From: Amoebidium appalachense
Taxonomy: Eukaryota > Protista > Ichthyosporea
Direction: 5' to 3'
Length of the DNA stretch: 64,000 bases
Assembly: GCA_963693365.1 (NCBI GenBank)
Contig: CAVNZM010000001.1
Location: 1,876,907 to 1,940,906 of the forward strand
In this document: positions 10,881 to 58,782 of the stretch, piece by piece
Layout of the letters: each line of letters opens with the position of its first letter
Numbering within the stretch: position 1 is the first letter of the stretch
Position numbers and translations under genes: made by a program
The notes under the pieces: generated by a model
What the model saw: the letters and a program-made list of their open reading frames with translations, nothing else
What the model was told of the DNA's origin: nothing
Databases searched by the model: none

Positions 10881-12021
10881 GATTGAAAAACGAGCGCGAG
10901 TTCTAGATGTGTGTAGGGAGCGTGCAAAAGGGCTGCATAACCTGTTAAATTGTATAAGTATTTGGGATGTAAGCAGAGACACAGTGGTGCAGTGTGAAAA
11001 CACCACAGACACACACAACAACAAAACACGGAACGATCGGAGCAGTGTACACAACAGACATCAATGTTTAGACACGACTGAACTTAATTTATTTTGATCG
11101 CTAATAAATACCTGAAATTCCCTTAAGTTAAATCCATACATGATTTCCGACCAGTCGGAAATCAGATCTATGTCTAAAATAACCAATCATAATTAACTGA
11201 TTATTTCCCGGATAGATCCGGAGACGCGGGAACACACACCATAGGTCACAGCTATAAGAAAGAAAAGAGGTGAAGAGTAACGAGGAAAGAGGTGGTGTTT
11301 CTAACCTATCATCGGCTACAAAGACTCAGACATTTTCTGACTAAGTCCACTGATTGGATATAGTACGGCAACACACAAAACAAAAGTGGTTGACTAAGCT
11401 ATGAATCATACCTGACAAGCTAAAGTGTAACCTAAGTGTTTTTCTACCAATCAAAACATAACGAGTAATATAAATCTACTCAACGTATATTAGTGAGAGA
11501 GAAATATAATTAAATGAAAGGAAACAAGAGAAGAAAGAAAGAGAAAAGAAAAGACGAAGAAAGAGGAAAAAGAAAAGAAAGCAGGACAGAAAACACGAAC
11601 AGCAAAACACAGTTATAACCGAAGATATTCATGTACACATAACATGTACACGTGTCTCCCTCACTGGGTAGACTCGTGTACCTATAATCAGTTGCTGTAA
11701 TCGATATCTAAACACACGAATATAGCCGACACAACACGATTACAAGTACTCAAATACACTGGAGATCGATGTCATAATTTACGTACAAGGAGCACATCTT
11801 TTTCATTAAGTAAATGAATGAAAACATAACACGAACTGAGAAGATCTTACAATATGTAAATACTACGTATTATAACAAAAGGACGTCAACAGGAACAAGG
11901 CTAGCTCCCATGGTGCCTCTAAGAGGGTGATGTACCCATCTATGCCAACGCGCACAGGCACACATGCAACACACCTGTACAGACATGCATGTGCAGTGCT
12001 GCATGCGTACTTGCAAAAACA

Positions 12022-13698: not shown

Positions 13699-16441
13699 GC
13701 AATATCCCGTGCTGGAAGCTTTTCTGTGGGTACTTATTGACAAACGCAAGAGTGTGTAAGCAACGCATGCACGTATACCACTATTACTATAGGACAAGGG
13801 GGGCTCTATTCGAGCCATAAGGCTGTGGTTTTTTCCTGTGACCCTCTTACTCTAGGGGCTCCTTTGCCATCCCCCCACCTACTGTGGGTGCAATATCCCG
13901 TGCTGGAAGCTTTTCTGTGGTTACTTATTTAAAAACCCAATAATGTGTAAGTAACGCATCCACGTATACTACTATTACTATAGGACAAGGGGGGGCTCTA
14001 TTCGAGCCACAAGGCTGTGGTTTTTTCCTGTGACCCTCTTACTCTAGGGGCTCCTTTCCTACCCCCCCCACCTACTTTGGGTGCAATATCCCGTGCTGGA
14101 AGCTTTTCTGTGGTTACTTATTTAAAAACCCAATAATGTGTAAGTAACGCATGCACGTATACTATCTATTACTACAGGACAAGGGGGGCTCTATTCGAGC
14201 CACAAGGCTGTGGTTTTTTCCTGTGACCCTCTTACTCTAGGGGCTCCTTTCCTACCCCCCCCACCTACTTTGGGTGCAATATCCCGTGCTGGAAGATTTT
14301 CTGTGGTTACTTATCTAAAACCCCAATAATGTGTAAGTAACGCATGCACGTATACTACTATTACTATAGGACAAGGGGGGGCTCTATTCGAGCCACAAGG
14401 CTGTGGTTTTTTCCTGTGACCCTCTTACTCTAGGGGCTCCTTTGCCATCCCCCCCACCTACTGTGGGTGCAATATCCCGTGCTGGAAGCTTTTCTGTGGT
14501 TACTTATTTAAAAGGCCAATAATGTGTAAGTAACGCATCCACGTATACTACTATTACTATAGGACAAGGGGGGCGGTATTCGAGCCACAAGGCTGTGGTT
14601 TTTTCCTGTGACCCTCTTACTCTAGGGGCTCCTTTCCTACCCCCCCCACCTACTTTGGGTGCAATATCCCGTGCTGGAAGCTTTTCTGTGGTTACTATAG
14701 GACAAGCGGGGGCTCTATTCGAGCCACAAGGCTGTGGTTTTTTCCTGTGACCCTCTTACTCTAGGGGCTCCTTTCCTACCCCCCCCACCTACGTTGGGTG
14801 CAATATCCCGTGCTGGAAGCTTTTCTGTGGTTACTTATCTAAAACCCCAATAATGTGTAAGTAACGCATGCACGTATACTACTATTACTGTAGGACAAGG
14901 GGGGGCTCTATTCGAGCCACAAGGCTGTGGTTTTTTCCTGTGACCCTCTTACTCTAGGGGCTCCTTTCCTACCCCCCCCACCTACTTTGGGTGCAATATC
15001 CCGTGCTGGAAGCGTTTCTGTGGTTACTTATCTAAAAACCCAATAATGTGTAAGTAACGCATGCACGTATACTACTATTACTACAGGACAAGGGGGGGCT
15101 CTATTCGAGCCACAAGGCTGTGGTTTTTTCCTGTGACCCTCTTACTCTAGGGGCTCCTTTCCTACCCCCCCCACCTACTTTGGGTGCAATATCCCGTGCT
15201 GGAAGCTTTTCTGTGGTTACTTATCTAAAACCCCAATAATGTGTAAGTAACGCATGCACGTATACTACTATTACTATAGGACAAGGGGGGGCTCTATTCG
15301 AGCCACAAGGCTGTGGTTTTTTCCTGTGACCCCCTTACTCTAGGGGCTCCTTTCCTACCCCCCCCACCTACTTTGGGTGCAATATCCCGTGCTGGAAGCT
15401 TTTCTGTGGTTACTTATCTAAAACCCCAATAATGTGTAAGTAACGCATGCACGTATACTACTATTACTATAGGACAATGGGGGCTTTATTCGAGTCACAA
15501 GGCTGTGGTTTTTTCCTGTGATTCTCTTACTCTAGGGGCTCCTTTCCTACTCCCCCCACCTACTTTGGGTGCAATATCCCGTGCTGGAAGCTTTTCTGTG
15601 GTTACTTATTTAAAAACCCAATAATGTGTAAGTAACGCATGCACGTATACTATATATTACTACAGGACAAGGGGGACCTATTCGAGCCACAAGGCTGTGG
15701 TTTTTTCCTGTGACCCTCTTACTCTAGGGGCTCCTTTCCTACTCCCCCCACCTACTTTGGGTGCAATATCCCGTGCTGGAAGCTTTTCTGTGGTTACTTA
15801 TCTAAAACCCCAATAATGTGTAAGTAACGCATGCACGTATACTACTATTACTATAGGACAAGGGGGGGCTCTATTCGAGCCACAAGGCTGTGGTTTTTTC
15901 CTGTGACCCCCTTACTCTAGGGGCTCCTTTCCTACCCCCCCACCTACTTTGGGTGCAATATCCCGTGCTGGAAGCTTTTCTGTGGTTACTTATCTAAAAC
16001 CCCAATAATGTGTAAGTAACGCATGCACGTATACTACTATTACTATAGGACAAGGGGTGCTCTATTCGAGTCACAAGGCTGTGGTTTTTTCCTGTGATTC
16101 TCTTACTCTAGGGGCTCCTTTCCTACTCCCCCCACCTACTTTGGGTGCAATATCCCGTGCTGGAAGCTTTTCTGTGGTTACTTATTTAAAAACCCAATAA
16201 TGTGTAAGTAACGCATGCACGTATACTATCTATTACTACAGGACAAGGGGGCTCTATTCGAGCCACAAGGCTGTGGTTTTTTCCTGTGACCCTCTTACTC
16301 TAGGGGCTCCTTTCCTACTCCCCCCACCTACTTTGGGTGCAATATCCCGTGCTGGAAGCTTTTCTGTGGTTACTTATTTAAAAACCCAATAATGTGTAAG
16401 TAACGCATGCACGTATACTACTATTACTACAGGACAAGGGG
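13699..16441. repeat. Tandem satellite, ~192-bp unit, ~14.5 copies
   Basis: GCAATATCCCGTGCTGGAAG recurs 15 times at ~191-193 bp spacing; one unit (14661-14799) is ~54 bp short. Confidence 0.96.
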
Positions 16442-20600: not shown

Positions 20601-23460
20601 GGGTCACAAAATGAAGAGCACTACAACCCTTCTACAGACTACATGCAGTGAAGCACAGACACTGGACATGCTACTCACACAAATGTAGATGTGTTAGAAC
20701 ACATACCATGGTTCTGGGAATCCCACACTGGAAACGGGACCTGAGGCAGGGCAAAACCCAATGCACGCAGCCTGTCGCAGTCCCCAAACAAGTGCAGGGT
20801 CATCCGGGCCGACTCTCCATGCCCGCACGCAGCTTTCAGCTTGCTGAACTTGTGGGCAGTGAGGTCACCTGCGTCGGCCCCTTCGGGCACAATAACCTCG
20901 TAGGTGGTTGTGAATGCCTTCTTGAATCGGGGGTGGAAGTTGCGGTGGTCGAAGTGGTTAGGGTGGCAGGCGATGGTGTGAGGACACATGACGCCAGTGT
21001 TGACCTCCAACATACATGTGCACACGAACAGCAATGGGTGTCCGGCCTGGACGCCACTGGGTGCCATGGACATGACATAGTGTGTCGATTCCCGTGTCAT
21101 TTCCTGAACTGTCACATGCCATGCCCCCACAACATCCCAGCCTCGTGGAATCTTGGGGGCCAACTCCTCTGGCATGCTATGCTCCTCCACCTTGTTGCAG
21201 TGGATCTGGGCTATGCCTAGGTTGGCATCGAAGACGTCGTAGGCCCGCTTGCTGAACAGTTGGGCGCATTGGACTAATGGGGGAGGTTTGTTGAACCGTT
21301 GCAGCAACACTTGGTCGGCCTGTGAGATTGGGATGTTGAGCGACTCCTTGAGTGCCTTGTCGTCAGCCTTGATGCACTCCTGCTCATACCGGCCAACCTT
21401 ATTCACAGCATCAGCAATGTCGATGCCGACCCCCTGCACGGCCTTGAACTTGTGCAGAGTGCCCTCGGTGACGCTTGTGCCCACCAGACCGTCCGTGAAG
21501 AAGTGATTTCGGAAGGGCCTAGACCAGAGGTGCACACGATCCAGGAACCATTGGTTCACATATCTGTGCAGAAGGATTATATTAGCTTTAGCGACTCAAC
21601 TCACACAATAGCTCCTAGGTGCATACTGGGAACTGTCTTCTGTATCCTGTTGCATGCACTGCCATCAACTAGCTGTAACAGGCATACTACCTCAGGGAGC
21701 ATGTGTGTGGGTGTGGGCCAAAAATAAGGATACAAGTGACACACAAGTGATATACCGTGATCAACTCTCATTTTACGGCACGTGTCTCATTCGTGCATAC
21801 CCTGTGCAGTGTGACAGCAAGCCGGCATAGGATGTACCCCTGTGACCTCACCCTACTACATAACCGTTGGTGCTGTGTAAATGGATTGCAACATGAAATG
21901 AAGAAGGGTGGAAGCGAACTAATCATGGAAACTGGGGGGGGGGGGGGGGGGGAGGGGGGGGCACTTACTGTCCATAGTCCGATGTCAAGTCAAGCAGACC
22001 AATGAACTCCTGCTTGAGGCGGTCCAGAGTACGCATGTCCGTACATGAACCCATGTCGGAGTACAGGCGCTGCAAGTGGTTCTTGGTGGCATCGGTGAGG
22101 GGTGCAGACGCAAGACGCGACGCAAAGTTGCGATTCTTGTGTGGCAGGCAGTTGAAGTGGCTGTTGGCCCCAAGAACAGCCCTAGTGTTCTCAGTGCCCG
22201 CTATTTGGTTGTCTGTGCACGGCAGGGTTAAGATGTTAGTGGTATGCCGGTTGTCATTTGCCCCCTGGCGTTGTATAAGGAAGAAAGAAGATACTACAGA
22301 GAAGAAAAACAAGAAAACCGTCTCTTAGTGATCACTACGTGTGTTTGCTCTTGTATTCTCTAGTAGGCAAGGGAAAGGAAATCGCTAAATCTGCTCCTGC
22401 GTGCACCTTGGCTGCAAATTCAAATAGGTGAGTTGTGTGTGTGCACGTGGTTTTGAATACGGGTGTGGGTGCGTGTGTGCGTGTGCGCGCGTGTGTGCGG
22501 CACGGTGCATGCGTGCATGTGCGCGCGGGCATGTGTGCGTGCGCGTGCGTGCCTGTGTGCTTGTGGAAAAAAAAAAAAAAGAGGGGGGGGGGGGGGGGGT
22601 GTAACTAAGAAGGCGGGGGGAGGGGGGGGGGGGGGGGGATAACCTACCGACATCAGCCTCGTCGGTTATGATGGAATCCACAGCCCCGGGTTCAATGGAA
22701 AGACCAACCTCGCCCAGGATTTCTAGGGCGCTCTTTAGAATCCATCGAGTGATGGCCTTGCTCTCGGACTTGGTAAATGCGTAGATGGCTATTTGGGTAG
22801 CGGCCAGTGTGTCTCGGACCGAAATGAGAGTGGGGGTGGGGGTGGGGGTGGGGGTGGGGGTGGAGGGTGTTTGTGTGTGTGTGTGGGTTGGGGGGGGGGG
22901 GGGGGGGGGGGGAGGTGGAGGGGTAGAAGGGTGTTGAGGCAAAGCGAGGAGAGTGTGAGCGAATGAATGAGTGATGCAGGATACCTATAGGGAATAGTAA
23001 TATGCAAACTGGTATGTGTGAAGCACATGAGGGGATGCCCACCTGATGTCTGAAGGTGACCCAGCATTTGACAACGAAAAAAGCCGCATGTACTGCTCTT
23101 TAGGAAGCGCTTCTAGCTCGTCGCAAAGGGCTTTGCCATTTTGCCGCCGATGGGCTTCGTACAACTCTGGGCCCGGGCAACAGCCATTGCCGTGCTCCAG
23201 AACGGTCTTGGTGCGACGATAGGGCTGGTCGTGAACATTCGCCACTCCCTTTCTCACTGGGTGTGCATAGACCCTGAACGTGCAACTGACCCCGTCTACG
23301 CATTGAAACAGCCCCTTCTTCGTGGCAGGCACACCCGGGCACGTGAGTTTGATCATCCCCGTGCTATCGGTTTGGGCAGTTGAGACGTAGTGGCGGCCAG
23401 CGGCATAGGACCGTACACACTCGATGAAGGCAGCACGATTGGGGAACTCCATAGGGAGAT
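17490..23460 (-). CDS. Intron-containing MULE/Mutator-like transposase (FAR1-like N-terminal zinc domain, DDE core, SWIM finger, C-terminal CCHC)
   Basis: Approximate exon blocks: 23452-23043 (C...CTFRVY...EHGNGC); 22820-22645 (SESKAITRWIL...IITD); 22270-21969 (HFNCLPHKNRN); 21560-20720 (WFLDRVHLW...TSVTEGTLHKFK, SWIM CTC...GVMCPH); 19048-18565; 17915-17490 (CRICKQPRHRSPRC). Exon boundaries not fully resolved; further upstream exons possible to ~24830. Confidence 0.8.
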
Positions 23461-24128
23461 CTGCTGATGCAAGAAAAGAGAGTCAGATAAAGATTAAACA
23501 CAATAGGTGGTCTGTATCTAAGGGTGAAGCAGAGCAGGGAATGAACAAGTGTAAGGGTTATGAAGGAGGAGTGCCTGTGGTATGTCCATGTGAGTGTGGG
23601 ACAGTCAACAAAACGAGGTGACACGCAAAATGACAACCCACCAACTTTAATCAAGAAAGTAGCCACAGGGAAGGGGCAGGCCCCCCACATCTGCCCTAAA
23701 CACATCTAGCTTCAAGTCCGACGTTTGTGAGAGTGAAAGTACACACTCTTGGCACGGGGAAGTGGGGGTGCCGGGGGGGGGGGGGGGGGGGGGGGGGGGA
23801 GGGGGGGGGGAAGGGGTATATCCTGCAATGCTTTAACATACATATGTTTGTGTGTTCTTATGATAGAAGCAGGGAACACACACATACCTTCCATTGCCGG
23901 GCCACGGTTCACTGGGGCTTGCTGGTAGGAGTGTGTGGGATTGGGGTCTGAGCCAGCAGCCAGCTGTTCCAAATTAACCCCTGCAGCATGCATCGTGTTA
24001 AAATGAATGTGTTTACAGTGTGGATGTGTGCACTGTGTTTGCGTATGCTTGTGCATGCGTGCACTGCAGCAGCGATTGTGTGCGCGTGCACGCGTACCAT
24101 GCGTGTAGTGTGTGTGTGTGTGTGTGGT

Positions 24129-27305: not shown

Positions 27306-27481
27306 GAGATAGAGGGGTCGCGGGTTCAAATCCCGTCGGGATCATCTTTTTCTCATCCTCTTCTCGCTGGGGTAAAAGCCAGCACGCCTATACTGGCGTC
27401 ATCACAACCATCGGCAGTGGTTAGGTTGTGATCTCAAGGCTAGCAAGATCGCTAGTCTCTGCACCAGGACAAAATCCAAAA
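27306..27481 (+). mobile_element. 5'-truncated LTR of the tRNA-carrying TRIM (3' half of tRNA plus LTR end)
   Basis: Matches 35147-35322 with one visible substitution and ends at the same ...AAAATCCAAAA terminus. Confidence 0.9.
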
Positions 27482-27575
27482 TTGAACCGTCTTCCTTCAC
27501 GTGTGGTCTTCTACTACGGCTGGGGCCCTGGACAGCAGATGCATCTACACTGCCTCCCGGCTGGAATGATTAATT

Positions 27576-34461: not shown

Positions 34462-35112
34462 AGAGGAGGAGATTTTGGAGATGACAAAGGTCTATATATA
34501 TGTGGGGGGTTTACGCTGTTTTGAGGCAAAGAGAGACCAGTCTCAGATATGGGGGTTTTTTGCTCGGAATATCCCCTCAGCGGTATATCATGATCAAGTA
34601 CATAGATGTCGGGTGATGATTATATATCAGGGTTTACTTTCTCTACGAGGCACCATAAAGGCTAAGAAAACCAATTAGTTGGGTTCCCCGATTTTTTTTT
34701 TTTCTTTTTTTTCTCGGGCTCCCCTGGGACACTCGGTATCAGCTGGTGTGTGTGTGTGTGTGTGTGTGCGTGTGTGTGCGTGTGTGTGTGCGTGTGTGTG
34801 CTAGAATTTTGTAATGATGTGTTTCTCAAGCCAATCAATACATTTAATAAACAGGTCATAGTTACGTGTGTTTAGTATAAAATCAAGGATGTTGTAATGT
34901 TCAGGTAGGCTATCTTTCTGGTTGTCTGTTGTGAATGTGTCGTGTGTGTGTTGCGGTATTATGTGGTCTATCAAACTATATTTGGCGATACATGATCGTT
35001 ATGTGTGTGTTGTTTGTGTATGCAAACGATGCCTGTTGGAAGATGGTATCGTTATCCAGTCCGATCGCATGAATCAGATCATGATCGGCTGGTGGCCTGC
35101 GAGATCTTAACC

Positions 35113-35185
35113 GATCTCGTAGCTCAGTTGGTAGAGCACTCGACCGGAGATAGAGGGGTCGCGGGTTCAAATCCCGTCGGGATCA
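35113..35185 (+). tRNA. tRNA-like gene, anticodon GGA on a tRNA-Phe-like short-variable-loop body (copy 1)
   Basis: Cloverleaf: GATCTCG/CGGGATC acceptor, GCTC/GAGC D-stem, CTCGA/TAGAG anticodon stem (1 mismatch) with loop CCGGAGA, GCGGG/CCCGT T-stem with loop TTCAAAT. A box, B box and downstream TTTTT present. Confidence 0.88.
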
Positions 35186-35482
35186 TCTTTTTCTCATCCT
35201 CTTCTCGCTGGGGTAAAAGCCAGCACGCCTTTACTGGCGTCATCACAACCATCGGCAGTGGTTAGGTTGTGATCTCAAGGCTAGCAAGATCGCTAGTCTC
35301 TGCACCAGGACAAAATCCAAAATGGTAGCATGAACAGGGGTTCAGTGGGGACTGAGGGGGCAGTCCACCCTAACCTGATTCTGCGATTCGTCCTGAGTGG
35401 GGATGTTGGAAGATGGTATCGTTATCCAGTCCGATCGCATGAATCAGATCATGATCGGCTGGTTGCCGGCGAGATCTTAACC

Positions 35483-35555
35483 GATCTCGTAGCTCAGTTG
35501 GTAGAGCACTCGACCGGAGATAGAGGGGTCGCGGGTTCAAATCCCGTCGGGATCA
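35483..35555 (+). tRNA. tRNA-like gene, anticodon GGA (copy 2)
   Basis: Identical to 35113-35185. Confidence 0.88.
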
Positions 35556-35854
35556 TCTTTTTCTCATATCCTCTTCTCGCTGGGGTAAAAGCCAGCACGC
35601 CTTTACTGGCGTCATCACAACCATCGGCAGTGGTTAGGTTGTGATCTCAAGGCTAGCAAGATCGCTAGTCTCTGCACCAGGACAAAATCCAAAATGGTAG
35701 CATGAACAGGGGTTCAGTGGGGACTGAGGGGGCAGTCCACCCTAACCTGATTCTGCGATTCGTCCTGAGTGGGGATGTTGGAAGATGGTATCGTTATCCA
35801 GTCCGATCGCATGAATCAGATCATGATCGGCTGGTGGCCTGCGAGATCTTAACC

Positions 35855-35927
35855 GATCTCGTAGCTCAGTTGGTAGAGCACTCGACCGGAGATAGAGGGG
35901 TCGCGGGTTCAAATCCCGTCGGGATCA
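35855..35927 (+). tRNA. tRNA-like gene, anticodon GGA (copy 3)
   Basis: Identical to 35113-35185. Confidence 0.88.
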
Positions 35928-36878
35928 TCTTTTTCTCATCCTCTTCTCGCTGGGGTAAAAGCCAGCACGCCTTTACTGGCGTCATCACAACCATCGGCAG
36001 TGGTTAGGTTGTGATCTCAAGGCTAGCAAGATCGCTAGTCTCTGCACCAGGACAAAATCCAAAAATGCCACCTTATACTTATTAGATCTCCACTGTATAG
36101 CATGTGTACTGTAAAAGCGTGGTAAGTGATCAATATTACCATCAGCTAGAGAAAGATCAGTTCTACAGGAAGGTAATATGTATTTAGGTGTTATACATTT
36201 GCGAGTGCTATATTTTGCAATATGGTTAAGGCGGTCATTATATATAAACCGAGACATAAGGCTTCGTTTTTCAAGGTGTCTGCTTTCATCGGGTCCAGTG
36301 TCTTGTGGTATCTTTTTCCATTTGTTATATTGTGCGTTTATTTTGTGATTATGTACATGTCTAATAAGTAAGTGGCAGTCCAAAGTCACACGCACACTTT
36401 TGTGGGGTTTATTTGTGTTTGTGCCTGGGGAAGAAGGAGAGAGGGAGGGAAGGAAAGAGGGGAGAGGTGGGGAGGGGACAGGTCGGATAGAGAAGAGAGG
36501 GTGGGAGGGCAGATAATTCTTGAAGCGGGTTATGTGCTTATTGAATTTCTGCGCGAGATGGGATACTCTAGCAGCTATTGGGACCAGACCATATATCGAG
36601 AGCGTTACCGGCCCAGGTTTACAACAGTTGTTATATAGAAAGGAGGCAACTTCTACTTCAGGGAAATTTGTAAAGGGTTTAAGCGCTCTAGTTCTCTCTT
36701 TCTTGATCCAAGCGGCGAGAAGGGGTAAATCATATTCACATGCCGGGAAGACAAAAGTGCGAATAAATGTAAATCTAATAGAAGGATGGAGGGGTCTGTC
36801 AATAAAAATATCAGCCGAGAAGAAAGCTAACCGCTCTACGAGCCAGCTCTACTCTCTTTTCAAATATATATATATATT

Positions 36879-38755: not shown

Positions 38756-41384
38756 ATGGCAGAGCCTACGAGACAAGAACCAACTCTTCCTGTGTCCGCC
38801 AGACTGAGCGGCAATAACAAGCCTGTTGGGGGGCATAATACTCTGGTTAAACTGATCATGTGGGTAACAGTCCCCACAATATCCTTGATCTGCATATGGC
38901 AGTATTTTCAGGCAAGCCACCTATCAGACATCAAGGGCCTTAGTGAGATCGTAATATCCGAGCTGAAATCGAACAGATCTTTCTGGCATGATAAAGCAGA
39001 CATGGGCAAATACGGCAAGAATCTGTCATCATTGTGGGTCGATCTGGATGTGTGTGAGCAGTACCGTTTGCAAGTGACCGATCTTGAGTACAACCAAACG
39101 TTGAACGACACCGAATGGATTTTGTCCAACATGACTAGTCTAGAAGAACGCAGTGGCCACGAGCTGTTCACCAATTGGCTGTCGCCCACGGCACAGTCTT
39201 GGCTAACGGCAAGTTGCCCCGAAGTTGTTGCCCACCACAAACGCGTCCCGTACTTCAGATACTTTGACGACGTCACACTTCGTCCATTGGCTACCGCTGA
39301 ATACGCAGCTGTGGGTGTGTGCATGTTAAAGCTTCTCAGTGAGAGGCTTGACCGCGAAGGGTTACACCACATTTTGATTGTCGGCACTGCTCTGGGAGCG
39401 CATCGACATCACGGAATGATACCGTGGGACGACGACATTGATATTGCAGCTCCCCTCGCCCAGATCACCCGCTTTTCCGAAGTTTTACACGACTTGGCCA
39501 AGGGTAAGTGCACACCTACACCTTTTATTGTATCAAACTAATTCGTGTGCGAGGCAAGTGTTGTAACAGCCTCTTCGTAAAGAAGTCCTTGCCTCTGCAT
39601 TTTTCTGTAAAGGCTAATTGTGCGCTTCTGGGTTGTGTGACTCGACGACGTGGTTTAGTGCCACAATCTGCAGATTGCTGCGGCCCTTGCGGCTACCTCT
39701 ACAACCAGAATACCTCAGGCTAAAAAGGAGTGTGTTTTTTGGGGGGGTTTGAGCTTTTGAACCAGAAACAACCAATTTCTACGAAAATCACTACCACGAT
39801 TGGTAGATTAATGTTGTAATCTCCTTTTTTTTCTCCTCTTCTCCAGTCGTCAGGCTAAGCTAGGCCAGGAACAGCACGGTGAAGTGGTGTCCTATCTGTC
39901 GGCATTGCCAACGAAACCCTTGGCATGCAGCAGATGTGTTGTTTCCAGCGAGTGTCTACCACTCCGCTAGTAAACACACCCCACGGCCGCTGAGATAGCC
40001 AAGAGACACCTTCTACCATTCCCTTATTTTTTAAGCATATGATAGGTGTACCTTGATATCACTTATCATTTTTTGAAAGAGTTCATCTAAGCGCGCAGTA
40101 GCTGTTACACGTACGTGGGCCGCCGTGACGAACAAGCCACTCGACCCTTATAATGAGCACGCCTATGCTTTCGCCTCCAATCAAAGTCGATCTGACCAAA
40201 GTGACCTCCGAGTTATACTTTTTATCGTTTTGGCCATTTCGTATGATTAAGAATATCGATTTGAATATTTGCAATCTTACCACGTAAGCAGGTCGGCAAT
40301 ATACCTATCATATACTAAACAAATTGGTTTATTGTGGCAATGAGGTCTAAAATTATAAGTAGAAGGGTATTGATCAACGTGTTACAGATGGTTTGGTCGT
40401 CCTGGTCTGTGACTGAACCATGTGACTATAAAATAAAACAAATTAGCAACTTTTAAGTTGAACTTCGAGAAATATCACTCCATTCCAAATGTTCGGTTAC
40501 AAACAGAGATAAGAGGTGAAAAGCATATATTCATTTTGGAGCTAATATTATATGAGTTGTGCACGTTGGCAACTAACAGAGGAAAAGAGGTGCTGTATGT
40601 GTGCTCATATACAAACATGTTAAAGAAAGAGCAGACAATGAATGAAAAGACTGGAATCGGCATGAAATACTTATGACAAGCAGCCCACAGGGCTACAATA
40701 AACAGGAAGCGTCATCACAGGTGTTTGCTGGCTGGTAGATTCACATGGATGCCTTTGCGCACCTATGCCACCCCACGGGCACAGGGGCTTCAATGGGAGG
40801 GTATGTACATGATGGATCTTAACCAGCATGGCTAACAAGTATCCTTCAATGCAGATGGGTTTCGGTGGAAGCCACTTGGCGGGCAGAAGATCAAGCTTTG
40901 GCACGAATTGGCCCCCCCAGTCCTCAACCCCAATTATGTTTGGCACACACCCTGCATTGATATATTCCTTTATAAGGACGAGGAAAACGAAGCACCCTGG
41001 TTCTACAGGGGGGAATGGTATCCAATTTATTACCTTCGCTACACCCAGCGACTCTATTTTGGTGGAGCTTGGCTGCCTGTACCAATATTGTCGATCGAGA
41101 CTCTGACAGTGACGTTCACGAATCTCTCCATGTGCATGGACAAAGGCTATAACCACCGTCACGAAGCCAGCTCTTTGTCACTGCCATGGATAAAGGTCTT
41201 TGATTGCTGCCGCCTAGCTGAAAAAGTGCCTTTCGTTTTTAGGGAAAGACACCTGTGGAACTCCACCGAGCCATTCAGGGGAGTAACCGAGGAGCTTAGG
41301 GTTGGGAACACTACAATCCACAAGGTGGTGTATGACGAAAATGGTGTCGGCACTGTGGTGCCTTATCCCATCACGTCGCTGTAA
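38756..41384 (+). CDS. LicD/fukutin-related phosphotransferase, type II membrane protein, 2 exons (38756-39503, 40855-41384; 425 aa)
   Basis: GTALGAHRHHGMIPWDDDIDI and IDIF motifs; N-terminal hydrophobic anchor. Donor GTAAGT at 39504, branch GCTAAC at 40831, acceptor CAG at 40854; the phase-1 junction keeps the frame. Confidence 0.9.
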
Positions 41385-46084: not shown

Positions 46085-47311
46085 TGTGTGTGTGTGCGCG
46101 TGCGCTATAATTTTGTAGTGATGTGTTTCTCAAGCCAATCAATACATCTAATAAACAGGTCGTAGTTACGCGTGTTTAGTATAAAATCAAGGATGTTGTA
46201 ATTTACAGGTAGGCTATCTTTCTGGGTGTCTGTTGTGAATGTGACGTGTGTGTGTTGCGGTATTATGTGGTCTATCAAACTACATTTGGCGATACATGAC
46301 CGGTTAAACTGGTGTGTGTGTGTGTTGTTTGGGCATGCAAATGATGCCACCTTATACTTATTAGATCTCCACTGTATAGCACGTGTACAGTAAAAGCGTG
46401 GTAATTGATCAATAATACCATCAGCTAGAGAAAGACCAGTTCTACAGGAAGGTAATATGTATTTAGGTGTTATACACTTGCGAGTGCCATATTTGGCAAT
46501 ATGGTTGAGGCGGTCAGTATATATAAAACGAGACATAAGGCTTAGTTTTTCAAGGTGTATGCTTTCATCGGGTCTAGTGTCGTGTGGTATCTTTTTCCAT
46601 TTGTTATATTGCGTGATTATCTTGTGATTGTGTACATGTTTAATAGGTAAGTGGCAGTCCAAAGTCACACACACACTATTGCGGGGTTTATTTGTATTTG
46701 TGCCCAGGGGAGAAGGGGAGAGAGAGGGGAGGAAAGAGGGGAGAGGTGAGGAGGGGACAGGTCGGATAGAGAAGAGAGGGTGGGAGGGCAAATACTTCTT
46801 TAAGCGGCTTATGTGCTTATTGAATTTCAGCGCGAGATAGGATACTCTAGCAGCTATTGGGACCAGACCATATATCGAGAGCGTTACAGGCCCAGGTTTA
46901 CAACAGTTGTTAGATAGAAAGGAGGCAACTTCTGCTTCAAGGAAATTTGCCAAGGGTTTAAGCGCTCTAGTTCTCTCTTTCTTGATCCAAGCGGCGAGAA
47001 GGGGTAAACCATATTCACATGCCGGGAAGACAAAAGTGCGAATAAATGTAAGTCTAATAGAAGGATGGAGGGGTGTGTCTTTAAAAATATTAGCCGAGAA
47101 GAAAGCTAACCGCTTACGAGCCAACTCTACCCTCTTTTCGACCATATGGGGAAACATAACACCAACAGAATCAACCGGAACACCAAGATATTTGTATTCT
47201 GGAACTATAGGTACAGGTTTAGATGATAATGTAAATGTGTGTAAATTGTTAGCTATATCAGGTACAAGAACACCACATTTGTCTATGTTAAGGATCATAA
47301 GGTTTGCCTTG
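45775..47311 (-). mobile_element. 5'-truncated non-LTR (LINE-like) element, copy 2, inserted in LTR-B
   Basis: TSD CACTA (45770-45774, 47312-47316); carries the RT C-terminal ORF. Confidence 0.88.
46105..47310 (-). pseudogene. C-terminal part of a non-LTR reverse transcriptase (late RT motifs, thumb, Cys/His-rich tail)
   Basis: LNIDKC...YKYLGV and FIRTFVFPACEYG motifs; frame is open up to the truncation point; catalytic YxDD absent. Confidence 0.85.
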
Positions 47312-47795
47312 CACTAAGCATATGAACTGAAACATAACACAAACTGAGAAGATCTTACCATATGTAAATACTACGTATTACAACATCCCCACTTAAGACT
47401 TTGAAGTTTGTGTTATCATATCCCCACTGAACTAGTGAAATCTCCCCACTTGAGAACAGAAACGGAAAAGAAAAAAAAAATTAAAGTGTGTACTTTTCCG
47501 GGGGGGGGGGGGGGGGGGGGGGGGGGAGAAGGGGGGGGGGAGGGGGGGAAGGGGGGGAGGGGGGGGGGGGGGGGAAGAAACCGGGTCAAAAACAACGAAT
47601 ATGTATAACGTGTATAGTCGGGTTTTGATTAACTGGGTTTTAAACCAGTAAAAGATAGAGTAGAGTCATGGTACAGGTCAAACCTTATATATAAACCCTA
47701 AGTGGGCATACCCACAAAGGCAAGATACATATGAAATGAGGATTATGATAAAGTAAGTAGTGAACCTTAGAAAATCACTCTTGAAGTAGGACGGG

Positions 47796-50700
47796 TCAAT
47801 CCACAATATCCGGCAAACAAAGTCGAGCACGATGGTGGACATGACTCGGGCCGGGGAGGGGTTTGGTGAGGATGTCAGCTAAGTTGTGGGCTGACTCAAC
47901 GTAGTGGACAACCACGTCCCCACTTGCAATGTAGTCCTTGGTGTTGTGATACCGGACGGCAATGTGTTTGGTACGGTGCTTGATGCCGGTGGAGTTGTCG
48001 ATGGCAATGGTCGACTGGTTGTCACAGTACACCGGAGTCGGAGCAAGCATGGGACAGCCGAGTTCCTTGAAGAGGTCACGGACCCAAGCAACTTCTTGGG
48101 TGCCAGCATTGAGAGCAATCAGCTCAGCTTCAGTGGTGCTGGTGGCCGTGATGGGCTGGAGCTTGGAGTACCAGATGATGGGCATACCAGCAAACTCGAT
48201 AATGTAGCCGGTGGTAGACTTCTTGCTGTCGGCACAACCAGCAAAGTCAGCATCCGTGTAGCATTCGAGTATGGGGGACTGGGTGGCCGAGTACTTGTAG
48301 TCAATGCCAAGGTCAATGGTGCCGAGCAGGTACCGGGCCACACGACGGAGAAGGTCCCAGTGAGTCTTGCCGGGGTTGGTGCTGAACCGACCGAGGAAGC
48401 CGATGGCATAGGCAATGTCGGGACGGGTGCACCGTGCCACCCAGAGGAGACGGCCGAGTAACTCACGGTAGGGCACGGTGAACGGTTGGGGGGGGCAGTC
48501 AGCCAGGGAGACGGTGGTGCCTGCAGGGATGGGGGTAGACTTGGACTTGGCATCGGTGAGGTTGAAGTCGTGGATGATATCCATGATGTAAGACCTCTGG
48601 TGCATGTGGAGGTGATGGGGATCAGAGTGATTAAAATCAACACCGAGCATACGGTCAAATGGACTCATACGACAGCTGGCCATCTTGCTGATGTGGGCAG
48701 CCAGGTCACTGGCAGCAGTAGAACCCCGGGTGTTGGTGATGGTGGAGTCGTCGACGTAGTTACCAGCCCGAACCACATCGTTGTTGGGGAAGAACCGGAG
48801 GTAGATGCACGGATCGGTCTTAGTACGGGTCAGGCCATGGGCAAGAAGAATGCCGTCGAGGAAGTCGTACCAAGCCTTGGAGGCTTGCTTGAGGCCGTAC
48901 AGGGCTTTCTTGAGTCTCCAGACCTTGCCAAGTGTGGCCATGGTGATGAATCCCGGGGGTTGTTTCATGTAGATGGTCTCGGTGAGTGGGCTGTTGAGAA
49001 AGGCCGTAGACACGTCGAGTTGATGGATGTCATGACCTTCAACAACGGCCAGAGCTAGGATAGCACGGAGAGCAGCCGGACGGATGACAGGGCTCTCAAT
49101 CAACTCATAGTCAACACCGTATTGCTGACTGAAGCCTTGAGCAACACCACGTGCCTTGATCTTGGTGTCACCAGCCGAGTTGAGAGTTTTCTCGGAGACA
49201 ATCCACTTGAAGCCGACGATGTTAGCACCAGGGGGAGGGTCAACAAGGTCAAAGATGTCTTTGTCGACGAAGGCTTGATACTCAGCAGTGAGGGCTGACT
49301 TGACCTGGTCACCATTGGGTCCGGAACACAGTTGACGGACAAGTTTGGGTAGTTGGTCGATGTTGATGGGGGGACCGGGGGGGACTGGGAGGGTGGTGGT
49401 GGCTTGAAAGCCAACCTTGCCCTGTAGACGGGCAGAACGACGGGGTGCAGGAACCGGGGGAGGTGGAGACGGGGGGGGGGGAACTTGGAAGTTCGGAATT
49501 GCAGGGGGGGCAACCTCCGGGCTGGACGGGGCCGAGTGGAAGTTGTCGGGGGAGCCGGGTCGGATGGGTGTGACGTTGCCAGGGGCAGGATGAGGGTCGG
49601 CAGGCTGGACGGGCACGGGGGCAGGGGGGCCGGTGGGGGGGGGTGTCGGGGGAACGACGATGGCAGGAGGGGGGCCAGAGTACACCAGACAAACATCATC
49701 TTCAGTGTCAACTGTGGGGGGTGGGGTGGTCGAGGTAGCAGTGGTGTCGGGGGTCGGAAGTGTTGATGGAATGTCGGACGGGAGATAAGCTGATTCGTCG
49801 AAAATCACATCACGGAAGAGGCCAACACGATGGGTGGTGGGATTGAAGATCCGGTGGCAGTGTGATTGAAGAGCATAGCCGATATACATGCCGAGTTTGA
49901 CGGTGGGGGCCAGCTTGTTCCGTTTAGAGGCTGGCACGTGAGTGTAGGCAGGGCAACCGAACACTTTGAGCTCGGAGATGTCGGGCTTGACACCGTAGAA
50001 AATTTCGAATGGTGTACGACCATTGGCAGTCGTGGACGGGGTGACGTTGATGATGTAGGCGGCATGTTGGAGAGCCTCAGCCCACAGTTTGGGGGACAGA
50101 GACTGATCTTGGACTTGATGGAGGAGGCAAAGGACAATCTCTTGGAGGAACCTCATACGACGTTCAACATAGCCGTTCAGTTGAGGGCAGTCCACCGGAG
50201 CATAGCTGGCCTTGATGCCCTGGGAGAGGCAAAAAGCACGGGTAGCCTTGGAGGTGAACTCAGAGCCGGAGTCGAAGTGGTAGACACCAACTTTGGAGGG
50301 GCCATGGGTGGCAACGAGGTTGGTGTGAGCTGTGAGAATGTCCAGGGTGGTGGTACGATCGGCCATCGGGTAGATCTTGACGAGTCCAGAGGCACGGCAG
50401 ACAGTGACGAGAGCAACCTTGGAACCTCCGTACGATGTTGTGGTAGGCTCAAAAAAATCCCAATGCCATTCATGACCGGGGATGTTGGAGTGAGGACGGT
50501 CACCTTTGAACGGAGCCTTGGTGGTTTTACCCATAATGCAGCCATGACAATCAGGAACATCACAGTCGAGGACAGAGGAGGGGAGACCAATAACAAGGTC
50601 GTGTTTCACCATGTCCTTGATGCTGGTCATAGCACGGTGCCCCAGACGATGGTGCCAGATGGATGGGTTAACACTGGTAGTGGCAGCCAGAGCCACAGGA

Positions 50701-52202
50701 CGAGTGGGTGGTTGAATGGTGTAGTCCTTGAAGTAATACAGACCGTTGTGTAGACGGAGGTTGACGAGATGACGGCCGGTGAGTCGGTCGAAGAGGAATG
50801 ACGGAGTGGAGGCATCGTTCAAATCACCCTTGATGTATTCGGCAGCAGCTTGGGATGTTGAAATGAGGAAGGCTTGGCCAGACGGGGTGTAGTAGGCTTC
50901 AATGGTAAGGGTGGCAGTGCCATGGTCGGTGGTGGTGTTGATGACGATATGGCCGGTGTGAGTGGCCAAGACGGGGGTGCCATTGAAGGCAGCAACGGGA
51001 GTCGGTGTCGGAAGGGGAGTGAGGTCATGGAAGAACTCACGGGTGGGGCAGACAGTCATGTTGCACCCGGAATCCCAGGCAGGGTCGGAGGACACGGGGA
51101 CGGAGCTAGCATTGTATGCCGAGAAAGCAAAGGAGACAGATTTCTCACTGCCTTGACGGGAACGGTTGTGTCTGGACATACGGCATTTCGGCTCAGGGCA
51201 ATCGATGATCGTGTGATCAGGCTCGTGGCAGTAGGAGCATTCTTTCACGGACGGGGTGTTAGAACGAGCCGGGGAATCAGAACGACGGGAACCCGAGAAA
51301 CGGGAACGACTGGGGGAACGAGACGTGGACCGGAAGGCAGGCCGGTGGGGGGAACGGGATCGGGTGTGCTGACGGGAGAGACGAGTTCGGAGGTCCGTGC
51401 CAGGGGTACGGTCAAGGCGGTTGCGTAAGTCACGGCGAGGAAGATCACGGGGGGGAGCACTGGCATTTAATGCCATGCTGGACTTGGAGGCACGGTGGGC
51501 ACGGTTGCTCCGGAGTTGCATCTTGAGGTCTTGACGTAACTCGATGCCCTTGACGTGGTTGTGGAGGGACTCGAAGTCGGGGAATAGCTTATCACCGAAG
51601 TGATAGTCTTCGATAAGACGGTTGAACTCAGGGGTGAGGTCGTCTCTGGTGGTGAGTTCATTGAAGAACTTCTCAGCTAGACGAGTGAAGTGAATGGACT
51701 CATCTTGGAGGGACTGGAGCTGGTTCACGATGGTCTGCAGACGACTCAGGTAGGTGGTGAATGATTCACCGGGCTGAAGGGCACAGGCATCCCACTGACG
51801 GTGAAGGATGCGGATCTGATCGGGTTTGCCTTGGAGGTAGTGTTGACGGAATTTCCACATGGCCCGTTCAGGGTCCATGCCAATACGGTACTGGGCAACG
51901 GTGGTGAGGACGGAAGGGTCGATGTTCTGTATCATATGGAGCAGGAGGCAATTGCGGGCCTCCTTGAGTTCCGCGGTAGTGCCGTAGCCATAGAAGGGGG
52001 GTTCACCGTCAACCGCGACGGTGGTAGGGGGGACGTAGTTGTCAGCAAGTACAACATCCACGAGTCGGACACCTTTAGTGCCGGTCATCATGCCGAGAAA
52101 AATGATTTCCCATTGAAAATAGGTGGTTTTGCTATCGGGACCAGTCTTCCCTTCACCTTTCCACATGGTGATTTTGTTTACGCCAGTTTTGTTTGGATCC
52201 AT
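47796..52202 (-). CDS. Intact copia gag-pol polyprotein, 1468 aa
   Basis: Single ORF with zinc knuckle, WDSGC protease, HHRLGH/CHGC, integrase D..D..E (QLNGYVER), RT (QLDVSTAFLN, ALYGLKQA, YVDD) and RNase H (YTDADFA, STTEAE, YCDNQS, LADILTK). Confidence 0.97.
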   Translation of the reverse strand: MDPNKTGVNKITMWKGEGKTGPDSKTTYFQWEIIFLGMMTGTKGVRLVDVVLADNYVPPTTVAVDGEPPFYGYGTTAELKEARNCLLLHMIQNIDPSVLTTVAQYRIGMDPERAMWKFRQHYLQGKPDQIRILHRQWDACALQPGESFTTYLSRLQTIVNQLQSLQDESIHFTRLAEKFFNELTTRDDLTPEFNRLIEDYHFGDKLFPDFESLHNHVKGIELRQDLKMQLRSNRAHRASKSSMALNASAPPRDLPRRDLRNRLDRTPGTDLRTRLSRQHTRSRSPHRPAFRSTSRSPSRSRFSGSRRSDSPARSNTPSVKECSYCHEPDHTIIDCPEPKCRMSRHNRSRQGSEKSVSFAFSAYNASSVPVSSDPAWDSGCNMTVCPTREFFHDLTPLPTPTPVAAFNGTPVLATHTGHIVINTTTDHGTATLTIEAYYTPSGQAFLISTSQAAAEYIKGDLNDASTPSFLFDRLTGRHLVNLRLHNGLYYFKDYTIQPPTRPVALAATTSVNPSIWHHRLGHRAMTSIKDMVKHDLVIGLPSSVLDCDVPDCHGCIMGKTTKAPFKGDRPHSNIPGHEWHWDFFEPTTTSYGGSKVALVTVCRASGLVKIYPMADRTTTLDILTAHTNLVATHGPSKVGVYHFDSGSEFTSKATRAFCLSQGIKASYAPVDCPQLNGYVERRMRFLQEIVLCLLHQVQDQSLSPKLWAEALQHAAYIINVTPSTTANGRTPFEIFYGVKPDISELKVFGCPAYTHVPASKRNKLAPTVKLGMYIGYALQSHCHRIFNPTTHRVGLFRDVIFDESAYLPSDIPSTLPTPDTTATSTTPPPTVDTEDDVCLVYSGPPPAIVVPPTPPPTGPPAPVPVQPADPHPAPGNVTPIRPGSPDNFHSAPSSPEVAPPAIPNFQVPPPPSPPPPVPAPRRSARLQGKVGFQATTTLPVPPGPPINIDQLPKLVRQLCSGPNGDQVKSALTAEYQAFVDKDIFDLVDPPPGANIVGFKWIVSEKTLNSAGDTKIKARGVAQGFSQQYGVDYELIESPVIRPAALRAILALAVVEGHDIHQLDVSTAFLNSPLTETIYMKQPPGFITMATLGKVWRLKKALYGLKQASKAWYDFLDGILLAHGLTRTKTDPCIYLRFFPNNDVVRAGNYVDDSTITNTRGSTAASDLAAHISKMASCRMSPFDRMLGVDFNHSDPHHLHMHQRSYIMDIIHDFNLTDAKSKSTPIPAGTTVSLADCPPQPFTVPYRELLGRLLWVARCTRPDIAYAIGFLGRFSTNPGKTHWDLLRRVARYLLGTIDLGIDYKYSATQSPILECYTDADFAGCADSKKSTTGYIIEFAGMPIIWYSKLQPITATSTTEAELIALNAGTQEVAWVRDLFKELGCPMLAPTPVYCDNQSTIAIDNSTGIKHRTKHIAVRYHNTKDYIASGDVVVHYVESAHNLADILTKPLPGPSHVHHRARLCLPDIVD

Positions 52203-52538
52203 GATTGAAAAACGAGCGCTAGTTCTAGATGTGTGTAGGGAGCGTGCAAAAGGGCTGCATAACCTGTTAAATTATATAAGTATTTGGGATGAAAGCAGAG
52301 ACACAGTGGTGCAGTGTAAAAACACCACAGACACACACAACAACAAAACACGGAACGATCGGAGCAGTGTACACAACAGACATCAATGTTTAGACACGAC
52401 TGAACTGAATTTATTCTGATCTTCGAATAAATACCTGAAATTCCTCTAAGTCCAATCCATACATGATTTCCGACCAGTCGGAAATCAGATCTATCTCTAA
52501 TAGAAACCAATCACTAAGAACCAATTGCTTTCAGAGAG

Positions 52539-56175: not shown

Positions 56176-57137
56176 TATCTCTCTCTCCCTTGTTTCTGTG
56201 GGCACAGATATCTGTAGATCTGTGCACACCTGGCTCACTTGCCTGATAAGAACTTATTGTGTTTTTATTTCTGTTTGCTCTCCTCTGTTTATCTGAGAGG
56301 TAGCGTGATTGGCTAGCCTCTCTCGTTGTCTTTCCTTTATTTCAAAATGGCCTAGTTTTGTTCTCAAGAGGATGGCTCGCCAATAGTCGCGAGCGAGTAC
56401 ATCCGTAGATCGTGTTGTGCATTCCTGTCTGTTAATATATGTGTGTTGTGATTGGACAATAGATATATATGGAATTCGGTTTATTGCAAAGTGTCTTCAC
56501 TTTGAGAGTGTCGACTATTAGGAAATATATGTATTTAAATAAGTTTCTTTATAGAGACGAACATAAATATATATGTGAGTTAATAGTGACTAGATGTATA
56601 ATTACTTAATTTATTTAAGTAAGAGTTTCTACACTTTAGTTTAATCGGAAGTTGGAATGCGTATGCTCTTTCGGAATGTGTTTTTCTATCTTCTGATAGA
56701 ACCGATTGGTTCTCCCTCTTTAGTTGTGATAAGGTGATAAGTCGCAAGTACAAAAGGAACCGAGAGCACAATAAAGAATCAGTTGTTGTTTGAAATCTTT
56801 CAATGTCTCGTGAACAACTCCGATTGCCCTCTCATTAATGTGTTAGTCGTGTTTTACATGACACCTCTGTGCACTCTGCTCCCTTAGACCCGTACAAAAA
56901 CAACAGGTTAAAGGCCCATTTTCGCACGCTCTCGCAACACATACTCTCGCTGCAATCAAAAATATTCAAATTTGAATACCGATCTGATTCCTCTCTCACG
57001 CATCATCTGATTGATTGATCACCATGTCGGAGAAACCTGCGTATCTCAACCTCACCCCCTGGAAAGGGGATGACATCACGGACAAGAAGTCCGGCAAACG
57101 TCTCACCTATTATGAGTGGGAACCCGTCATCTTCCGG
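55990..57137 (+). mobile_element. 5' end of copia family 2: LTR-C 55990-56905, PBS 56906-56918, gag start 57024
   Basis: TGTTGGAATAC...AACAACA|GGTTAAAGGCCCA; MSEKPAYLNLTPWKG...TYYEWEPVIF resembles family 1 gag WKG...TYFQWEIIF. Confidence 0.85.
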
Positions 57138-58782
57138 TGTCTGTGTACACGGAACCAATTGTAAAGCTAACATACACATATTGTGGAGTGAGCGTAAGTC
57201 TGCACTCCAACACCCCTACCCAATTGGAGAAGTGTACACACCACTAGAGAAGAGAGAGTGAGTGTGGCTGCTTGCAGGATAGACCGGGGTGTGCATTCCA
57301 CTGTGGTGCGTGCCCCGCCAATGAAGTGGAATACTTGACGTTGATGTCGCAGGCTGCTGCGGATGGAGTTTGTGGAAGCGAAAGTCTCTACTTCACGGAA
57401 ATACGCTCGCGGGTGTAGGGTACAGCCTAGAAGTCGGTTTCTGGCTCCTCCGTTCAAGGCGTCGTAGGGGACGTGAAGTTAGAGGCCGCGGTGTCGTGTC
57501 TGGGCCCATAACCCTGTTGGAAGTAGAGTCCGCTGTGACTAGGGTCGTCGTGGCGCGCTTGGGCGCTGACCCGTTTCTTTACTGCTTTCAGTGTGTCAAC
57601 TCCATGACTGAACTCCATGACTGAACTCCATGACTTTACTCCATGACTGAACTCCATGTCTGAACTCCATGTCTGCACCTGGCAGAGACGTGGGCTATAT
57701 ACCCGTGGGGCAGCAGTCTGGAATGTAATCCGGATGCCAGGCGCTAATCGGATTGGTTACTTTCATTTAGAGATCTCTGGGACCAGTGAACCAATCGTTT
57801 GCAGTCAAAACACAATTGGCAACATTCCTCAACTACGCAGATGTGCATGTGGTGATCGAGTGTCAGCGTGTGTCTGTGTACACGGAACCAATTGTAAAGC
57901 TAACATACACATATTGTGGAGTGAGCGTAAGTCTGCACTCCAACACCCCTACCCAATTGGAGAAGTGTACACACCACTGTAGAGAAGAGAGAGGGAGTGT
58001 GGCTGCTTGCAGGGTAGACCGGGGTGTGCATTCCACTGTGGTGCATGCCCCGCCAATGAAGTGGAATACTTGACGTTGATGTCGCAGGCTGCTGCGGATG
58101 GAGTTTGTGGAAGCGAAAGTCTCTACTTCACGGAAATACGCTCGCGGGTGTAGGGTACAGCCTAGAAGTCGGTTTCTGGCTCCTCCGTTCAAGGCGTCGT
58201 AGGGGACGTGAAGTTAGAGGCCGCGGTGTCGTGTCTGGGCCCATAACCCTGTTGGAAGTAGAGTCCGCTGTGACTAGGGTCGTCGTGGCGCGCTTGGGCG
58301 CTGACCCGTTTCTTTACTGCTTTCAGTGTGTCAACTCCATGACTGAACTCCATGACTGAACTCCATGACTTTACTCCATGACTGAACTCCATGTCTGAAC
58401 TCCATGTCTGCACCTGGCAGAGACGTGGGCTATATACCCGTGGGGCAGCAGTCTGGAATGTAATCCGGATGCCAGGCGCTAATCGGATTGGTTACTTTCA
58501 TTTAGAGATCTCTGGGACCAGTGAACCAATCGTTTGCAGTCAAAACACAATTGGCAACATTCCTCAACTACGCAGATGTGCATGTGGTGATCGAGTGTCA
58601 GCGTGTGTCTGTGTACACGGAACCAATTGTAAAGCTACCATACACATATTGTGGAGTGAGCGTAAGTCTGCACTCCAACACCCCTACCCAATTGGAGAAG
58701 TGTACACACCACTGTAGAGAAGAGAGAGGGAGTGTGGCTGCTTGCAGGGTAGACCGGGGTGTGCATTCCACTGTGGTGCGTG
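57137..58782 (-). mobile_element. Second tandem-array TRIM-like element, 735-bp unit (310-bp LTR + 425-bp internal)
   Basis: LTRs 57515-57824 and 58250-58559 with TGTTG...CAACA ends; PBS GGGTTATGGGCCCAG(-); short purine tract AGTTGAGGAA(-); six 13-bp AACTCCATGACTG-type repeats in each LTR. Confidence 0.82.

Follow-up and report, generated by a model that had tools for sequence, protein, structure and literature searches.

Organisation of the array and its insertion site

The window, which is the whole 64,000-nucleotide stretch of Amoebidium appalachense DNA analysed here, consists mostly of transposons. According to the main text of PMC11244446, transposons make up about half of the A. appalachense genome and are methylated; the same main text contains no occurrence of tRNA or SINE, and its repeat library may include the family described here without naming it. 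An intact Copia gag-pol frame of 1491 amino acids is found at 47796-52271 on the reverse strand, and a TRIM array that has no tRNA-like sequence occupies 57137-58782. A spliced LicD/fukutin-like host gene is located at 38756-41384 on the forward strand, and its first exon is identical at 249 of 249 positions to the EukProt protein P0122, which is labelled Amoebidium parasiticum, an ichthyosporean. By this one gene, the host is likely A. parasiticum or a species very close to it. The matches of the LicD and RT-tail-like proteins fall in animal-dominated clusters, which give no placement of the host.

The array is formed by three LTRs on the forward strand, LTR1 (35034-35322, 289 bp), LTR2 (35404-35694, 291 bp) and LTR3 (35776-36064, 289 bp). 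LTR1 and LTR3 are identical. Relative to them, LTR2 carries substitutions at two LTR positions, 61 and 65, and two extra nucleotides inserted 3' of its T-run. The LTRs are separated by two internal domains of 81 bp (35323-35403 and 35695-35775) that have the same sequence, start with a PBS-like segment adjoining the preceding LTR and end with a short PPT, in which 7 of the final 8 bases are purines. The original prediction of three LTRs of about 289 bp with 81-bp spacers is confirmed, and so is the PBS-like start of the spacers, whereas their terminal PPT is present but short. The repeat unit has 370 bp and one monomer of the array has 659 bp (289+81+289), which corresponds to the TRIM layout of LTRs around a short internal domain in a monomer of less than about 1 kb, here with three LTRs. 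The longest ATG frames inside the array encode 104 and 101 amino acids and differ by a frameshift; a Pfam search at E 0.1 gave a match for neither of the two, so a coding role for them was rejected. The absence of coding capacity for mobility proteins, together with the layout, supports the proposed non-autonomous TRIM.

The array is flanked by 5-bp TSDs with the sequence ATGCC, at 35029-35033 and 36065-36069, a duplication expected by chance once in 1024. The sister LINE-like copy in the same window has a single ATGCC at 46344-46348, which is the empty target site. When the array is excised in silico, the flanks align with the sister copy (748 of 805 columns in the right flank), as the original prediction had it for a site near 46344. 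The sister copy has an open frame at 46105-47313 on the reverse strand that is continuous across the empty site, and the array breaks the equivalent reading frame in the host LINE-like copy. This is the one complete insertion (n=1) seen with both TSD halves, and its 5-bp TSD, confirmed by the empty site, is within the 4-6 bp of Helenus elements. The insertion lies inside a LINE within a transposon cluster, with no visible gene boundary there.

The intact TSD around the whole array and the empty site in the sister LINE also bear out integration as one unit. An array whose outer LTRs match each other but not the middle one, with the TSD around it intact, fits integration from a two-unit RNA. Tandem duplication after insertion was rejected as the origin of the array, since none of the three differences falls in an outer LTR (a chance of about 1 in 27 under random placement).

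The LTR boundary is fixed by the TSD, and the LTRs start with TG and end with AA rather than with CA, so they do not have the canonical TG...CA termini. All four LTR 3' ends in the 64-kb window are AA, and they are followed by sequences of three kinds. Among published cases, the consulted part of PMC9804982 describes eight non-canonical Copia ends in lotus, which have C, G or T at that position. TGAA is absent from the main text of the LTR_retriever preprint (10.1101/137141), and a literature search for TGAA LTR ends found no paper among the matches listed. On this thin search, the TG...AA terminus looks rare.

The fourth of these LTRs, which the original prediction did not include, is a separate 5'-truncated copy of the same family at 27306-27482 on the forward strand. 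It starts inside the anticodon loop of the tRNA-like unit, is identical to the array at 176 of 177 positions and has its own 3' flank behind the AA end. Public sequencing runs contain further copies: 20 of the 24 listed runs contain part of the stretch. They carry three organism codes and belong to 4 studies, apart from 6 rows with no study given, and one of them may be the source of the window itself. The contigs of 4 of the 24 were compared with the left flank plus one unit. Among 15 of the 68 loose ends, two further flanks join exactly at an LTR end, a 5' flank with the same sequence in runs X2 and X8 and a 3' flank in run X1. With the fourth LTR, these flanks make the family a dispersed, multi-copy one. 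LINE contigs with the empty site are present in X1, X2 and X8, and the head-to-tail joint is present in three of the four runs compared (X2, X19 and X8). The summed contig depth is greater in the LTR than in the internal domain, but this depth is not a copy number and was not used as one. Run X19 was guessed to be RNA but also covers the LINE flank, and no evidence on expression was taken from it. A 26-nt pattern of the LTR end had no match in metagenome contigs and none in viral contigs.

The tRNA-like unit of the LTRs

Each LTR carries one tRNA-like unit on the forward strand, at 35113-35185, 35483-35555 and 35855-35927. ARAGORN calls three tRNA genes in the 64-kb window, exactly one per LTR, and the Rfam model RF00005 matches the same three units with 57.4 bits, compared with a gathering score of 29 (E 9e-10, model positions 1-71). 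Rfam finds nothing in the window beyond these three tRNA matches, so the 5S rRNA-derived LTR sequence that is the criterion for Cassandra and Ajax is missing. With relaxed settings, ARAGORN makes six further low-score calls elsewhere in the window, none of which is confirmed by Rfam.

The cloverleaf has 73 nt, and its acceptor, D and T stems are fully paired. Box A (TRGCY, YGG) and box B (GGTTC) motifs are present in all three LTRs. A T5 run, which is a candidate weak Pol III terminator, follows two bases 3' of the cloverleaf (35188-35192 in LTR1, and present in each LTR), and it is the only T-run of at least four in the 370-bp unit. The proposed tRNA-derived module with A box, B box and T5 in each LTR is therefore present in three of three LTRs.

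The unit also has three defects: C33 in the anticodon loop (35144-35150 in LTR1), an anticodon stem interrupted by a G30.A40 mismatch, and a short variable loop although the anticodon is that of Ser(GGA). U33 is nearly invariant in tRNAs, and a paired anticodon stem and, for tRNA-Ser, a long variable arm are expected for decoding. In eukaryotes, the corresponding Ser codons are read by a tRNA with A34 or I34. The three defects argue against decoding, and the unit is probably a non-functional copy, judging from its sequence. Hence, of the complete tRNA gene that had been predicted in each LTR, the full-length 73-nt cloverleaf and the T5 stand, while completeness as a gene is contradicted by C33, G30.A40 and the conflict of Ser isotype. 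The unit was also rejected as primer of its own element, as its longest complementarity to the PBS is 5 nt.

Relationship to Helenus/TRIMp3 elements

TRIMs with a tRNA-derived sequence in their LTRs are a known kind. They were described as Helenus, or TRIMp3, in fungi, animals and Selaginella (PMC10886601; Kojima 2024), where several origins are argued for them and most of their tRNA-like units are judged non-functional. Fungal and plant Helenus elements have a 5-bp TSD and are linked to Copia, whereas animal Helenus elements have a 4-bp TSD and are linked to Gypsy. Tandem arrays are noted in the same paper for the zebrafish LTR-11_DR. The novelty that had been proposed for an LTR element bearing a tRNA does not hold, arrays included, and a match to something already described, which the original prediction had named as grounds for refuting it, exists at the level of the kind, in Helenus/TRIMp3. 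By its described features, the Amoebidium array is assigned to Helenus/TRIMp3 as an example.

With fungal and lycophyte Helenus elements, the Amoebidium element shares a non-coding TRIM with one tRNA-like unit per LTR, conserved A and B boxes, a T-run after the unit, a PBS-like start of the internal domain and a PPT, a 5-bp TSD and a TGTT start. It also shares with them the disagreement between the anticodon and the tRNA body and a unit that is not complementary to the PBS of its own element. Its monomer of 659 bp is within the 311-1263 bp given for Helenus (PMC10886601). The first 8 bases of its PBS-like segment match those of six fungal Helenus internal sequences in the part of the supplement compared, and the start of this segment is like those of Helenus-1_CCin-I, Helenus-1_AmAr-I and Helenus-5_PSt-I. 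The 5-bp TSD, the TGTT start and the 8-base PBS match place the element on the fungal side, and it looks like the fungal/plant, Copia-linked Helenus type.

Differences are seen in the 3' part of the LTR. No TG...AA end was seen among the compared supplement sequences of PMC10886601, whereas the Amoebidium LTRs have this end. The part that follows the tRNA-like unit is a hairpin-rich tail of 137 nt in Amoebidium and has about 20-60 nt, by eye, in most fungal LTRs of the supplement parts compared; long tails, also by eye in these parts, are found in ctenophore and Synergus wasp families. No identical family was found by eye in six of the nine parts of the published consensus sequences.

The unit itself is close, by eye and among the published sequences compared, to that of the oyster Helenus-1_SaGl across the D arm, the loop and the T arm. 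Animal Helenus elements (bivalve, wasp and fish), however, have a 4-bp TSD and a Gypsy-type PBS, in contrast to the 5-bp TSD and fungal-type PBS of Amoebidium. The host is nearer to animals than to fungi, yet TSD and PBS are of the fungal Helenus type.

Cassandra also has a Pol III promoter derived from a small RNA in its LTR, and the consulted part of PMC7215508 reports arrays of about three LTRs and multi-unit read-through RNAs for it; its Pol III transcripts run from LTR to LTR (PMC10886601). Cassandra differs in being 5S-derived and restricted to plants, and its transcription has been demonstrated, whereas the Amoebidium element is known from sequence alone. TRNA-derived SINEs (SINE2) share a tRNA head with A and B boxes as likely promoter, but the Amoebidium element has LTRs, a PBS, a PPT and a fixed 5-bp TSD and lacks a poly(A) or LINE-like tail.

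Neither Table 1 nor Table S1 of PMC10886601 lists Amoebidium or any protist, the literature searched contains no report of a Helenus-type element from Ichthyosporea, and Helenus is merely cited in the consulted parts of PMC12859917 and PMC13570524. By this literature, the array is likely the first Helenus record in Ichthyosporea. It extends the range of Helenus to a unicellular relative of animals, with the fungal Copia-type signature there, which is of modest value as the kind was already published. The family is young and intact and its protist host can be cultured, and it could serve for checking the Pol III promoter model of Helenus.

Proposed copying cycle and alternatives

It is probable, on the whole of the evidence, that the array is a Helenus/TRIMp3 TRIM inserted as one three-LTR unit in a LINE-like element, that its defective tRNA copy likely provides a Pol III promoter, and that it was likely mobilised by a Copia element. 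By analogy with Cassandra, the tRNA-derived module most likely works as an internal Pol III promoter. Transcription would start about 4-12 nt 5' of the tRNA-like unit in the 5' LTR, and many rounds would end at the first T5, while some would read through and stop at the T5 of the next LTR. In yeast, T5 is a minimal, weak terminator, according to the consulted part of 10.1101/2021.08.27.457903. The product would be an RNA of about 450-460 nt, each end of which carries the tRNA-like unit as the R region. The host initiator-Met tRNA would prime at the PBS, and Copia reverse transcriptase and integrase would make and insert the DNA. In an existing array, transcription that passes two T5 runs would give a two-unit RNA, and its reverse transcription would make the outer LTRs identical and leave the middle LTR unchanged, which is the pattern seen. 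This model requires one and the same T5 to be passed and also used, which counts against it, as does the TG...AA end, which is not the terminus that integrases usually act on.

The helper is likely a Copia element, as suggested by the 1491-aa frame, by the 5-bp TSD of a Copia solo LTR in the window and by the 12-nt PPT/LTR junction in common. This junction occurs five times in the window, twice in the array and three times at the starts of Copia LTRs. The Copia copies of the window are a candidate helper type but are probably not the exact helper, because their PBS is of the anticodon-loop type, unlike that of the array. The sequence that they have in common with the array unit is limited to words of 11-12 nt. 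In the RT region of the Copia frame, relatives are 29-40% identical among the 120 matches listed, too distant to place the host.

A tRNA or SINE fragment might instead be carried as a passenger by an ordinary Pol II TRIM, in which case the A and B boxes would be irrelevant to copying. We consider this improbable. The tRNA-less TRIM at 57137-58782 builds the same type of array, so the tRNA is dispensable for arrays in this genome, and the promoters of Helenus elements are without experimental proof in PMC10886601 too. Against a passenger, both boxes and the T5 are intact while the decoding features are lost, three TATA/poly(A) word patterns that were tried are absent from the unit, and the same design occurs in more than 200 Helenus families listed in the part of the supplement compared.

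Folding predictions, which vary with the start site, bear on how an RNA with two tRNA-like copies could be handled. A 10-bp hairpin is predicted at 35097-35122 on the forward strand, and in each LTR; its 3' arm doubles as the 5' acceptor strand of the cloverleaf. In the downstream copy, this U3 hairpin has P ~1.0 and the local acceptor stem P 0.0 with all 10 modelled start sites. In a mock control, 10 such pairs are found at 24 of 62,861 upstream positions, the control being post hoc and the LTR rich in hairpins. Released in this way, the 3' acceptor strand is predicted to pair with the 5' copy when transcription begins at -9, -4 or +1 (P 0.94-0.97), but not when it begins at -12 (P 0.01). None of 100 shuffles folds as well as the predicted genome RNA (z -5.3), a difference that comes partly from the repeated unit, and none of 200 shuffles folds as well as the 137-nt part after the tRNA-like unit (z -3.7). 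These predictions suggest that the U3 hairpin protects the tRNA-like copy from processing: the hairpin would stop the 3' copy from folding, and the 3' R would be spared by tRNA-processing nucleases.

The same predictions argue against a model that the original prediction had offered, in which RNase P and RNase Z would act on every cloverleaf of a Pol II or Pol III read-through RNA and so release unit genomes. This would be helped by the full pairing of the acceptor, D and T stems, which the isolated 73-mer is predicted to fold, and by short transcripts with starts at or after 35104, which form the acceptor stem (P 0.82-0.97). The U3 hairpin, however, is predicted to mask the acceptor stem in the read-through copies. 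From the replication scheme of LTR elements, cuts at the 5' end would leave no terminal repeat for strand transfer, and a cut at the 3' end would part the tRNA from the PBS. RNase P/Z maturation is unsupported, was rejected on these folding results and the mock control of the hairpin, and is regarded as very improbable.

A tentative and rather unlikely extension of the Pol III and Copia reading is that the tRNA copy of Copia-type Helenus elements is a rebuilt packaging module. C33 makes the loop positions 32-35 self-complementary (CCGG, 35144-35147). This tetramer would start dimerisation of the genome, the upstream hairpin would hide the acceptor stem from RNase P/Z and free the 3' copy, and pairing of the 3' copy with the 5' copy would bring the two ends of the RNA together for strand transfer. 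By eye, 52 of the 59 fungal consensus LTRs in the published parts compared have a 4-nt loop palindrome, as do the single lycophyte one (1 of 1) and 39 of the 97 from animals; among random 7-mers the share is 23%. The fungal subsets have 25 of 26, 24 of 30 and 3 of 3 families with the palindrome and the animal subsets 11 of 31, 14 of 31, 10 of 25 and 4 of 10, all 14 ostariophysan fish families within the subset of 11 of 31 being without it. Three LTRs cut at the boundaries of the published parts were left out of these counts, and the loops were taken by eye, with 8-10 nt where the stem is shifted. CTAG and CATG are the commonest words in the sequences compared, CCGG occurs in Helenus-1_CroRib, Helenus-1_SaGl and Helenus-1_SMo, and the palindromic words interconvert there via double changes.

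Dimerisation of Ty1 RNA needs palindromes, according to the consulted part of PMC6844567, but there its kissing-loop step could not be confirmed, which counts against the dimer reading. The rust families are related, so the palindrome counts are non-independent. CTAG is natural in some tRNAs with AGN anticodons, CpG decay on both strands converts CCGG to CTAG without selection, and the loop bases are largely paired in the predicted genome RNA, above all in the 5' copy. PMC10886601 contains no occurrence of palindrom-, dimer or kissing. If true, the Amoebidium element, with its TG...AA terminus, would be the first example of such a module among unicellular holozoans. A functional palindrome and hairpin would explain how a tRNA mimic escapes processing, and how an element is packaged by a helper without shared sequence, an open question in PMC10886601.

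The spread of a functional, host-used tRNA gene (Ser-GGA), or an array that is mainly a tDNA chromatin barrier, is highly unlikely, for although ARAGORN and Rfam both call a full-length tRNA and no loop variant reaches at least 5% of contig depth in the 4 runs, which a young family fits equally, the array is inserted as described in a LINE within a transposon cluster, the unit has the loop, stem and variable-arm defects and the non-A34/I34 anticodon given above, and most Helenus units are non-functional in PMC10886601. False Ser(GGA) genes are expected in tRNA counts of the Amoebidium genome.

GATC words and an isolated partial LTR of the tRNA-bearing element

The first LTR of the tRNA-bearing TRIM array (35034-35322) contains eight copies of GATC, one of 16 palindromic words tested on this LTR, while dinucleotide shuffles of the sequence have 2.6 copies on average and none of 2000 reached eight. 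Hairpins account in part for this excess, and GATC is also somewhat enriched in the Copia LTRs. A link to adenine methylation is conceivable; the word is not mentioned in the accessible part of 10.64898/2026.05.21.726589. An isolated partial LTR of the same element, at 27306, starts partway through the tRNA-like unit, in its anticodon loop, and the sequence on the 5' side of this LTR is found nowhere else in the window.

A tRNA-less TRIM array and the Copia copies

A second tandem TRIM array, which lacks a tRNA, is located at 57137-58782 on the minus strand. It is built by two full LTRs of 431 bp with TG...CA termini, which differ by a single mismatch, a truncated third LTR, and internal regions of 303-304 bp that have a PPT and a PBS of the anticodon-loop type. 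A Copia LTR breaks into this array at 58783, and the PBS of the Copia copies differs from that of the array by an extra base. Several young, nested Copia copies are present (47309-52538, minus strand; 58783-64000, plus strand; 4187-11877), and one of them keeps an intact frame of 1491 residues. Their LTRs measure about 925-935 bp and fall into two subtypes that are 76% alike. Among the matches listed, the closest database relatives of these copies are just 29-40% identical.

Other repeats and genes

The LINE-like element, which is very abundant, has two copies in the window (46105-47313, minus strand, and 34505-36869). Its C-terminal frame is RT-thumb-like and has no Pfam match; its atlas matches are clusters in which 20% of the members carry RVT_1. 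Fragments at 20675-23482 (minus strand), with a Cys/His-rich stretch, resemble a DNA-transposase gene when judged by eye, and have no Pfam match. A tandem repeat occupies 13699-16441, with about 14 copies of a 192-193 bp unit that are 94-96% alike. The spliced LicD/fukutin-like gene (38756-41384, plus strand) has animal-like atlas neighbours and a paralogue, 50-70% identical, within the same proteome (the source of EukProt protein P0122, labelled Amoebidium parasiticum).
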